From NCBI RefSeq assembly GCF_963676685.1, contig NC_092349.1, positions 61,380,001 through 61,444,000 on the forward strand: DNA of 64,000 nucleotides, read 5' to 3'. Of this stretch, positions 4,996 to 7,937 are shown one piece after another. Position 1 is the stretch's first letter. Every line of letters begins with the position of its first letter. Origin of the DNA: Mytilus edulis. Lineage: Eukaryota. A model generated the notes under the pieces. That model ran no database searches. It was not told where the DNA came from and saw nothing but the letters and a program-made list of their open reading frames with translations. Position numbers and translations under genes: made by a program.

Positions 4996-5039
4996 GCGTC
5001 ACTGACGAGTCTTATTTATACGAAACGCGCGTCTGGCGT
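4996..5039 (+). ncRNA. Type I hammerhead ribozyme, second unit, stem II weakened
   Basis: Same core as 4636-4679, but stem II is gtct/atac (one mismatch). Predicted cleavage after 5033. Confidence 0.75.
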
Positions 5040-7937
5040 ACTAAATTATAATCCTGGTACCTTTGATAACTAATTACCATTCGTAACTCGAAAACGTTTC
5101 AATCCCATATCTTCTATATGCATACATGTATGTTGGATAAATCAAGAAGTATTTAATATAAAGAAATTTTAGTCGTGAAACACATACAGTTTTCATTTTT
5201 ACCGATAACGCCTACGAAATATTGATCTGAAAGGAAACTAGGTCATTTACAGGTATTTAGAAGGGAAGTGTTCATTAATGTCAACTGTTTAGTTTTTTCT
5301 TAACTTAACAGGAAAGGTAAGCCATGTACTTTTTTCCTTATCAAAGAACTTAGAAAGTGCAAATACCATAATAAATGTCTTGTTTGGATTTATCTTTAAT
5401 GAAACGGAATAAATAACAATTTTACAGACTTGGATGTCTACATACAAACATTATTTTTACAAAGATTTCTTAATCGCAAACGAGAAAATTTAGAACAAAA
5501 TGTGTGTTAGGAATTACGGATTAATAAATAATTTCTGTTATTTGTTGTTCTACTGCGGTATTATTCATTCAATCGCTGAAACAAAAAATATCGTTTTCCT
5601 ATGTTTACTACACACCTTCCTACAGTTTGTCATATTTTTTAGGTAAATATTCCCGTAGCCGTATTAGGCCTAATTAACGGACAATATTTGATTGTGTTGC
5701 CTTACAGTTTCCTTTTGCCATCCATTATAAAGCCTGTTATCTTTATCTGCGTTTTCAACTTGGTACTTCTAAGAAAATTATAGATCACTGATTTTAGGTC
5801 GTCCTCAAAATTGAATTTGAAATTGAAGATAAAAATCGGTCTTGTTCTTTAATGAAGTGTGCGAATTTCGAGAGTATGTGATTCATGTGTAAAACTTTTC
5901 ATGTTAATATAGAAAATTATATATTTTATAATAATGTAATTGAATGTGTTGCGAGAAAAGGAGTCCGGTCTTTTTTTTCTTCATTTTTTTATCTGAAAGC
6001 TTATTATTAGAGTTATCTTCTTGTATTTACTCTTTTATAATTTATTACTTAGTTTTTTTTTTATCACACACAATTGGGCTTTCCTAGCATTACCTATACA
6101 AATCTGACATTTTTTTCAAAACTTATAGCGTGGAAGCTGCTTGATGACCCATGCTTTTTATGATATTTTGGTCAAGCATGACATAAACTACATTTTGACG
6201 ACAAATCATTAAAAAGTTCTATGGATTTTTATTTAGACCATTCATCATCTTAAACTAATTAAATCCTATTCTTTGCGTTGTGATATTCAAATTATTTGCA
6301 CTCGGATTTGACCTCTCATGGTTACTTCTATTTCATAGGTAACTATGTTTACTAAAAACAGAGATTTCAATTTAGGTCGAATACTTTAAGGGGTATTGAT
6401 CTTAAAAATAATAAGTATATTTATCATGACTACCATAAATTTCAACCTTTTTGTTTGCCTTTAATTTCGAAAAAACAAGATAACCTATAAGGTTAACAAC
6501 TATAGATTACCGTATGTCTTTCAATGATGATAAAATTCTATATCGTGTATCTCGCCATAAAAGGCCTTGAAATGACAGATGAACGATTTAAATAACAACC
6601 AGAATTATGTTTAAAAAAATCAATGGAAATCAAATATGGCAAACAGCAACGAACGAAAACCATGACTTTGGAGATGCACATACAGCAATTGAAGGTGTTA
6701 ATAAAATAAAGATGTGGTTTGATTTGAAAAGAAACAAAACTTCTCCACAAGAGACTTGATGACACGACACGGGTATTCACACACATTGGTTTCTTTTCAC
6801 TTCAATCAACTAATATCAAAACGGTTGATTTAAAGTCACCTTATTCAATTGCAGACGTACACCGAATTTGTCCACCTTTGAATTTGTTGGTTTACTGACT
6901 TTAGTTTTAAAATGGTTTGTAATTAAGAGGTGGGGACAAAGACATTTTCCGCAGCTACTATATGGAGAATCGGACTCACATACATTGCAATCAACTTTAT
7001 TTTTTGACTTATCACGTTCACATATCCATGAAAAAGATAGGGTAGATAAGCTTTCAATTTTTATTTCAAAGAATATTGTTTGATGAGTACATAATACAGC
7101 TGTCGTTTTATATGGTCGAAATATAATTTAACAAGTGATCATGATGTTATCTGCTTCAATCGTTCAATATATATTAACTTTATATATGTCAAAGACGTCG
7201 TGCATATACTCTTAGAAATGGAAATAACACTTAAAAAGTTCCATGCGTCTGATGCGCACTCCTGAATTTACCTTCATCAATATCGCCAATGACTAAGTAT
7301 GTGAAAGCCAATAAATATAGGAAGATGTGATATGAGTGCCAATGAGACAACTCCATATCTAAGTCACAATTTATAAAAGTAAACCATTATAGGTTAAGAT
7401 TTGGTCTTTAACTCGGAACCTTGGCTCACACCGAACAGCATGCTATAAAGGACTTAAAATAATTACACGTGTAAAACCATTCAAACGGGAACGTATCAGA
7501 CCCGAAACAGTTGAAAAGTTATCTGATTCAAAAGGATCTAAAAAATGCAAATCTTTGTATGATTATTTGGTGGCTGGCAGCTTCTAGATTTTAATAAATT
7601 ATAGAAAGGTAAGAAAAAAGAATGAAGCTTTTATTTCAATTCTCAGATTTACATTATTCAACTAGATAAATGAATTTATTTTTTTTGCTTGACGTGTATA
7701 AATCAAAAGTGATGTAATGCAAATGTTAATATGACTGCAGTACTATTTAGACAAATCCGATGTCATGTCACCATATTTTCCCTAATTATGGTCAATATCA
7801 CTACAAACTGCTCAGAGTCTGAATTGACCAGTTTTTGTGCTCGTCCAGTAAAATCGAGCACACATTTTACTCGACTAGTCTCGACATTGTCTCGACTGTA
7901 CTTAACTGTACTTAAGTGTACTCGACTAGGTCTCGAT

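Follow-up and report, generated by a model that had tools for sequence, protein, structure and literature searches.

Hammerhead retrozymes of Mytilus edulis end beside a stem domain shared with Naiad elements, whose protein probably primes reverse transcription there on a probably circular RNA

Background

Short tandem repeats carrying hammerhead ribozymes, found in a 64,000-nt stretch of the Mytilus edulis genome (NCBI RefSeq assembly GCF_963676685.1, contig NC_092349.1, positions 61,380,001 to 61,444,000 of the forward strand; hereafter the window), raise the question of where on the RNA of such retrozymes a new DNA copy is begun, on which form of that RNA and by which enzyme. Rolling reverse transcription of a circle has been proposed for mussel retrozymes (PMC7229834, available text). 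How the circles of animal retrozymes re-enter genomes, and by which enzyme, was stated to be open by the describing group in the available text of two papers (PMC7761336, PMC7229834), and the review among them notes that the repeats show no conserved motif indicating a helper (PMC7761336). Copies in the window had been described in an earlier note, and their ends, junctions, RNA and possible helper were analysed here.

Methods

Copies were collected from the whole genome (1.37 Gb, 14 large contigs). Retrozyme family A was sampled in three ways, as long arrays, with a query ending at the cleavage site, and with an exact tail pattern in chromosome order; common repeats were sampled by exact patterns. 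For the mapping of ends, 23 duplicate loci and one family-C locus without an alignment block were dropped. RNA runs came from other individuals carrying the same species label, and strand was assigned by the usual dUTP convention. A GIY-YIG search of the genome yielded several intact Penelope-like families, including those referred to as N1 and N2.

Results

Retrozyme copies in the window

The family-A array at 4337..5077 (+ strand) holds 2.06 units of 360 nt (TRF period 360, 97%), with its 5' end at phase +24 and its 3' end at +39 to +44, counted from the cleavage site. Its first ribozyme, at 4636..4679 (+), is a type I hammerhead matching Rfam RF00163 above the gathering score (34.9 bits), with cleavage after C4673. 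The second, at 4996..5039 (+), was recognised from the sequence, with cleavage after C5033, and gave no Rfam match at the gathering score; a G-to-T change places a C-U mismatch at the top of its stem II, by which it may be weakened. The terminal tail past this last cleavage site spans 5034..5077 (+), where the last clearly templated base lies at about 5072 (+39) and the alignment can be extended to 5077 through one mismatch. The array also contains two copies of a stem domain of Naiad type. The first, at 4348..4426 (+), scored 89 bits with a covariance model that has the same sequence type in its training set; the second, at 4708..4786 (+), is marked by a fold z of -3.0, by covariation and by an outer helix pairing 4721-4727 with 4772-4778. 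The presumed start site at this second domain, 4712-4714 (+), lies 6-8 nt 5' of the outer helix, and loose ends in reads and contigs of other individuals (4714-4716) fall at the same site as the array ends.

Two further families, B and C, also form tandem units with a hammerhead core (unit lengths of A, B and C 360, 361 and 350 nt), and no long ORF covers the array. The family-C copy at 44411..44915 (-) has about 1.4 units of 350 nt, with cuts after 44795 and 44445, a domain at 44690-44768 and an end at +34. A truncated family-B copy at 39204..39314 (-) ends at about +45. The standard end was also found in an old A-type copy at 28810..29044 (-), a B-type copy with an internal deletion at 49705..49914 (-), an A-type copy at 54627..54740 (+) and a B-type copy at 56141..56224 (+), all of them truncated. 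Because the cleavage site is deleted in the old A-type copy, and lies within a 14-nt deletion in the one at 54627..54740, the offsets of ends 28810 and 54740 are by homology only. All seven ends listed in the earlier note (5072, 28810 and 54740 of family A; 39204, 49705 and 56224 of family B; 44411 of family C) proved real, and a word resembling GGTACC or GGTATC stands before each of them, together with a T-rich run. The rule is not followed by two fragments in the window: a copy at 56023..56103 (-), which stops 6 nt before the cut and lies in a 99% inverted copy of 54593-54706, and a decayed, domain-only fragment at 50652..50739 (-), which retains the domain's 3' half with the unit sequence following it. 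Naiad elements are present as well, as the 3' end of an N1 copy at 13109..13300 (-; 97% to L140), which stops in the same register before an absent domain, and as an N2-like 3' UTR piece at 44173..44410 (-), which directly follows the family-C end and itself ends at the N2 end word.

Features of metazoan non-LTR retrozymes found here are a type I hammerhead in each unit, non-coding tandem units of 150-450 nt in high copy number (10,890 and 5,481 exact pattern matches) and abundant sense RNA over the whole unit. Elsewhere in the window, three paralogous open frames with a GHSLGG motif (27180-28429, 40467-41714 and 58740-59810; two of more than 350 aa, uninterrupted) were seen, which we take to be lipase-like. 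Another abundant repeat family forms inverted and nested pieces at 9946-10333, 25161-25978, 29146-29420, 54884-55401, 55659-56023 and 56526-57253, including a perfect inverted pair of 225 nt (55177-55401 and 55799-56023).

Ends of retrozyme arrays across the genome

With duplicate loci removed, 119 of 128 family-A arrays end at +38 to +48 and none within 5 nt of the cut. The standard end was found in 33/37, 25/25 and 61/66 arrays of the three samples, in the order given above, where 3% would be expected by chance for an 11-nt interval. Family B ends at +44 to +49 in 26 of 29 arrays; the others are one at the cut (L189), one at +62 and one scored +12 that runs on through a TA expansion to the normal end. 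For family C, 17 of 19 arrays end at +32 to +37. Ends at the cut were detectable only in the 91 arrays (37 and 25 of family A, 29 of family B) whose queries did not require sequence past it, and one of these 91 (L189) had such an end. Counted over the whole genome, and roughly given the subfamily variants, the 21-mer just before the family-A end has 10,890 exact matches and the 21-mer spanning it 4,924.

The 5' ends are scattered over the unit. There was no significant pile-up at the domain start, where a circle would be completed (3 vs 4.4 expected), and the excess near the cleavage phase, of a kind that some linear templates would produce, was weak and non-significant (8 vs 4.9, P 0.12; beyond one full unit 6 vs 2.7, P 0.06), in a test from which 3 + 2 duplicates and the 13 of 176 arrays lacking the standard end were left out and in whose control 1 of 18 shifts reached P 0.03. 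The earlier note's description of copies that end downstream of the cleavage site and vary at their 5' ends therefore holds genome-wide, and the end-point distribution that it proposed to plot is neither random nor clustered at the cut.

A stem domain at a constant distance from the end

The offset between cut and end, taken where identity to the unit drops to background, differs by family (A +41 to +43, B +46 to +48, C +33 to +34), as does the end of a GTCGATG landmark (+59, +65 and +51, respectively), whereas the distance from the copy end to the end of that landmark is constant, at 16-19 nt in all three. The ends lie 6-8 nt before the outer helix of the stem domain. Since the offset from the cut varies and the distance to the domain does not, the ends follow the domain and the ribozyme does not set them. 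The earlier note's fixed start just 5' of a conserved multi-stem domain is thereby supported, as far as genomic ends can indicate a start.

The domain is about 65 nt long and covarying. Its helices P1 and P2 show two-sided changes at 6 of 15 pairs over 10 sequences, and at 7 of 23 pairs in a second alignment, within about seven lineages from which the structure itself was derived; 88.7% of cells are paired, against at most 47% in slid controls. The exchanges between G-U, G-C and A-U pairs fit the sense strand. In predicted circles of A, B and C (structures and unpaired probabilities) the domain forms and the start site stays largely single-stranded. No Rfam family matched the domain.

Junctions with the target

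Target-site duplications were not in excess over shuffled flanks in 136 arrays. Empty sites were represented by repeat homologues of the flanking DNA rather than by true empty alleles. In 18 of 31 comparisons the homologue already contained the final 2-4 bases of the copy (14 of 18 where at least three homologues were available; null 0.115), so that the comparison of flanks suggested in the earlier note did reveal microhomology of two or more terminal bases. The last unshared base was +39 in 12 of 25 family-A cases. This pattern fits a nicked strand that would pair with U40-U41 and be extended from A39; a nuclease preference for TT sites would give the same shared terminal bases. Some new copies are nested in older retrozyme or Naiad copies, at varied positions and not at the end site.

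Continuity of the template

The spacer across the cleavage site was exact in all 286 scorable junctions with intact anchors (227, 28 and 31), with no insertion or deletion among them. Units of one array share one haplotype: over 34 family-variable sites in 57 arrays there were 87 mixed array-sites vs 380 expected for independent units, 14 of the 57 arrays carry a private allele in every covering unit, and L066 consists of five identical units with a common deletion. Tail-only copies starting at the cut are rare, with two independent loci (L307, L332) among 60 terminal tails. Arrays of up to 25 units keep the normal 3' end, and a shared 5' flank, as left by 5' transduction, was not found among 176 arrays, with low power. 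In the long arrays L031, L035 and L052, two- or three-unit higher-order patterns or shared variants point to probable duplication at the DNA level, which could also homogenise units. L039 has 20 near-identical units. In the array at L048:1142-2050, family-A sequence gives way to family-B sequence partway through a unit and the copy stops where family-B copies stop, possibly as the result of a template switch or recombination.

In the stranded runs, sense depth stood against antisense depth at 2520 vs 256 (X23) and 1165 vs 209 (X21). Sense RNA is found in abundance along the entire unit, domain included; it passes through the cut and the end site alike and connects the end of the unit with its start. 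No pile-up of RNA molecule ends was listed in the two stranded runs; sense depth dips by about 30% at 4716-4739, just after the end site, and antisense depth falls at 4714, as DNA copy number does. Over 4500-4859, about two thirds of the sense reads of X23 carry one linked set of about 14 variants, vs a quarter to a third of antisense reads, and one subfamily or locus apparently dominates the retrozyme RNA of that run.

As sense RNA is continuous across both sites, the main RNA is taken to be a circle or an uncleaved multimer. One haplotype per array together with exact junctions leads us to reject jumping from monomer to monomer, and serial homing, as the main route. The template continuous across the cleavage site that the earlier note had deduced is thus borne out by spacers, haplotypes and sense RNA; a circular and a multimeric RNA, both of which it named, would each fit these data. 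Self-cleavage and covalently circular RNA would be expected in this genome by analogy.

Naiad families with the same domain and end register

N1 and N2 have the N-terminal GIY-YIG nuclease, CxC and DKA motifs and C-terminal reverse transcriptase of Naiad elements, as judged by motifs and Pfam. In N1 (P0001) the nuclease comes first (PF01541 at aa 179-269, with a weak RVT_1 match at 801-904), the CxC and DKA motifs are present, and a version of the domain stands at the start of the ORF. N2 has an open frame of 1000 aa (1787-4786 at locus L230) in near-identical copies and carries the domain in its 5' UTR, about 16 nt before the ATG. The N2 and family-A domains are identical at 56 of 66 nt (E 3e-18), and this is the sole significant alignment between the retrozyme unit and N2; the covariance model finds the domain at the 5' ends of both Naiads. 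Counted from the word just before the end, with L209-L228 (repeats of N1 loci) left out, copies end 16-18 nt before the GTCGATG landmark at 11 of 15 own-locus and 22 of 32 bystander junctions for N2, and at 22 of 28 and 17 of 33 for N1. Domain and end register are common to the retrozymes and to intact autonomous Naiad families.

No canonical hammerhead was found in N1 or N2 by Rfam and core-motif scans, where weight lies on the core-motif scan because Rfam gave no match for the minimal ribozymes of the Penelope families P1 and P2 either. As these Naiads show the same geometry without a hammerhead, their enzyme would have no need of a ribozyme-made circle. Both form partial tandems (pLTR). In all 9 N1 loci compared, the 5' pseudo-LTR matches the 3' end of its own locus without a difference across the final 100 nt, the mean between loci being 5.9 differences; for N2, over 200 nt in 14 loci, the means are 0.14 differences within a locus and 1.65 between, and private variants occur in both pseudo-LTR and 3' end at L234, L238 and L239 (N2 loci L229-L242; N1 loci L149-L170). 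Pseudo-LTRs of N2 measure 436 to more than 1500 nt, periods of N1 3966 to 4327 nt, and 2 of 14 N2 loci are full tandems. This suggests that the Naiad enzyme, too, may go round one template more than once with no ribozyme involved; homogeneous tandem masters would be expected to give the same picture. N2 RNA carrying the domain is nearly absent in four runs.

Diverged versions of the domain occur in Naiads from metagenome contigs (L349, L358 and L360), of which L349 ends just before its domain, and the distant Naiads L372, L384 and L399 end just before a motif that looks related by eye. Outside its training set and N1/N2, the covariance model gave weak matches at L356 (E 0.002) and L384 (E 0.29) among 80 loci, many of them 5'-truncated. 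At the N-termini of two homologous proteins, P0011 and P0012 (54-55% identity), stand peptides that correspond to the stem domain translated in two frames; these ORFs, too, are therefore likely preceded by it. Among Naiad-like metagenome contigs, the ends of L352, L356, L378, L389, L391, L397 and L404 overlap almost exactly by 77-145 nt, as in collapsed tandems or circles, L352 having the same period as N2 (3370 nt). A SECIS-like match (E 0.02), below the gathering score, was obtained in the 3' region of a distant Naiad (L372:3720-3786) and accords with the selenoprotein Naiads in the available text of PMC8557442.

Hammerhead-bearing and other Penelope families with a C-terminal nuclease were considered as helpers and rejected, showing no similarity to the unit and no domain: in 19 loci of five such families the covariance model found none in the elements, its one match there being a bystander retrozyme. 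Of these, the hammerhead-bearing P2 (L132-L135, L145, L146 and L148) has two end sites about 35 nt apart, in TA repeats, and its 11 ends are 6 long and 5 short. This family is very young, with a 792-aa ORF, an upstream ORF of 420 aa and the same tail signature as the anole element.

Discussion

A proposed route back into the genome

Hammerhead retrozymes that end beside a domain shared with Naiads are best accounted for, we think probably, by a Naiad protein that binds this domain and primes just 5' of it on what is probably a circular RNA. Its parts differ in strength: an internal start of reverse transcription directed by the domain is very likely, Naiad as the helper of retrozymes is likely on the sequence evidence, and, given both, a circle as the main template is reasonably probable. 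Arrays with two hammerheads would yield unit-length RNA that is ligated into a circle, a ligation shown for mussel retrozyme RNA in the available text of PMC7229834. The Naiad protein would bind the stem domain, and its GIY-YIG nuclease would nick AT-rich DNA, the 3' end of which would pair with two or three U-rich bases (U40-U41 in family A). Synthesis would start near A39, reach and pass the ligated cleavage junction some 40 nt later, and continue round the circle to a random stop. Such a course would yield constant 3' ends, scattered 5' ends and partial tandems. As the signal lies 3' of the start, it would be copied only on the way round, and circularisation by the hammerhead would thus let a parasite of 360 nt keep it.

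The nearest alternative keeps the same Naiad-directed start and reads an uncleaved linear multimer in tandem, with circles as a by-product; we consider it unlikely. Exact junctions and one haplotype per array fit it equally, full tandem N2 loci exist, 5' ends are in weak excess near the cleavage phase, and the one Penelope enzyme assayed in vitro, that of the anole, showed a preference for linear RNA in unprocessed form (PMC11167929, available text). Against this, linear read-through would lose at least one unit in every round, whereas arrays as long as 25 units still carry the normal 3' end; no 5' flank is common to the 176 arrays (at low power), and 14 of 57 arrays have a private allele in every covering unit. 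Circles also dominate the Northern blots of mussel RNA in the available text of PMC7229834, and the circle is favoured on account of these blots and of the unit lost per round.

Much less probable is an end made at the DNA level, where the GIY-YIG nuclease would cut a cDNA or circular-DNA intermediate, or home into older copies, at a fixed site by the domain. Penelope tails were ascribed to nuclease resolution in the available text of PMC8557442 and some copies do lie inside older ones, but these nested insertions lie at other positions than the end site, serial homing would be expected to mix haplotypes, the G-U exchanges hold on one strand only, and in the available text of PMC11167929 genomic ends match reverse transcriptase start sites. 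A linear, permuted unit with a true 3' end at +41, such as a terminated transcript that begins at the domain, primed at its end in the ordinary way, would account for T-rich ends and for the dip in sense depth just past the site; it appears very improbable, as most sense depth crosses 4714 without a pile-up of beginnings or ends, 5' ends are not gathered at the domain start, and no more than three T precede the A and B ends, with no cluster of ends at the T10 run inside the unit. There is least to be said for linear self-cleaved monomers, with the enzyme jumping, at the 5' end of one molecule, to the 3' end of a second. Such monomers are present in mussel RNA (PMC7229834, available text) and the two tail-anchored copies L307 and L332 do start at the cut, but the junctions are free of indels, jumps between molecules would mix haplotypes, and 41-nt stubs are rare.

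Beyond the priming by Naiad on a probable circle, a wider reading is offered tentatively, as we doubt it somewhat more than we believe it. Naiad reverse transcriptases would work in a telomerase-like manner, a domain in the 5' UTR anchoring the enzyme, which would start at a fixed distance 5' of it and read a unit-length template for more than one round; mussel retrozymes would be circles that pair this signal with a hammerhead, and Naiad pseudo-LTRs would arise from the same circling without a ribozyme.

The analysis supplies a named candidate helper (a young, intact Naiad ORF of 1000 aa), a covarying RNA signal of 65 nt and a start site at nucleotide level, which together reduce the question of how retrozymes are written back to one in vitro assay. 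The expected helper moves from hammerhead-bearing Penelope elements to a clade without hammerheads, and the ribozyme gains a rationale, the making of circles so that a downstream signal is inherited. There is also a handle on how Penelope-like elements build pseudo-LTRs, and an enzyme starting at a defined internal site of a small structured RNA may be of use as a tool.

Comparison with known systems

Mussel retrozyme circles, the general rolling model, internal initiation in one autonomous Penelope element and a Penelope origin proposed for vertebrate retrozymes are already known. In the openly available literature searched, no report was found of a fixed retrozyme end, of the stem domain or of a link between Naiads and retrozymes. 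The non-LTR retrozymes of Mytilus galloprovincialis (Cervera and de la Pena 2020, PMC7229834) have the same non-coding tandem units, of 350-390 nt, with a type I hammerhead, thousands of copies and abundant RNA, but the available text gives no insertion boundary, priming site or helper clade. Plant LTR retrozymes differ in having a type III hammerhead in LTRs and a 4-bp target duplication, where here the hammerhead is of type I and no excess of duplications was seen.

Naiad elements (Craig et al. 2021, PMC8557442) share with N1 and N2 the N-terminal GIY-YIG nuclease, CxC and DKA motifs, partial tandems, absence of a hammerhead and high abundance. The available text describes neither a stem domain in the 5' UTR nor a link to retrozymes, and reports a TA-repeat bias and an optional tail as frequent, not universal; at the N1, N2 and retrozyme ends analysed here neither was seen, and N1 and N2 show a single end cluster with non-microsatellite flanks, without the (TA)n bias or a tail of 30-40 nt. 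Use of Penelope machinery has likewise been proposed for vertebrate non-LTR retrozymes (Li et al. 2026, 10.64898/2026.07.22.740005), which, according to the available text, resemble the pLTR of Penelope-like elements and whose end points are not analysed there; in the mussel only the 65-nt signal is common, and it is shared with a clade without hammerheads.

The closest parallel is Poseidon PAc of Anolis carolinensis (Frangieh et al. 2024, PMC11167929), where, in the available text, reverse transcription starts internally, past the hammerhead cut and either inside the protein-binding region or on its 5' side, as deduced here, and where genomic ends likewise match start sites and targets are AT-rich. 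PAc is autonomous, has a C-terminal nuclease and two start sites (the tail), shows no homology between primer and template, and was tested on linear RNA, whereas the mussel retrozyme is a non-coding parasite with one narrow site, 2-4 nt in common with the target and a signal of Naiad type.
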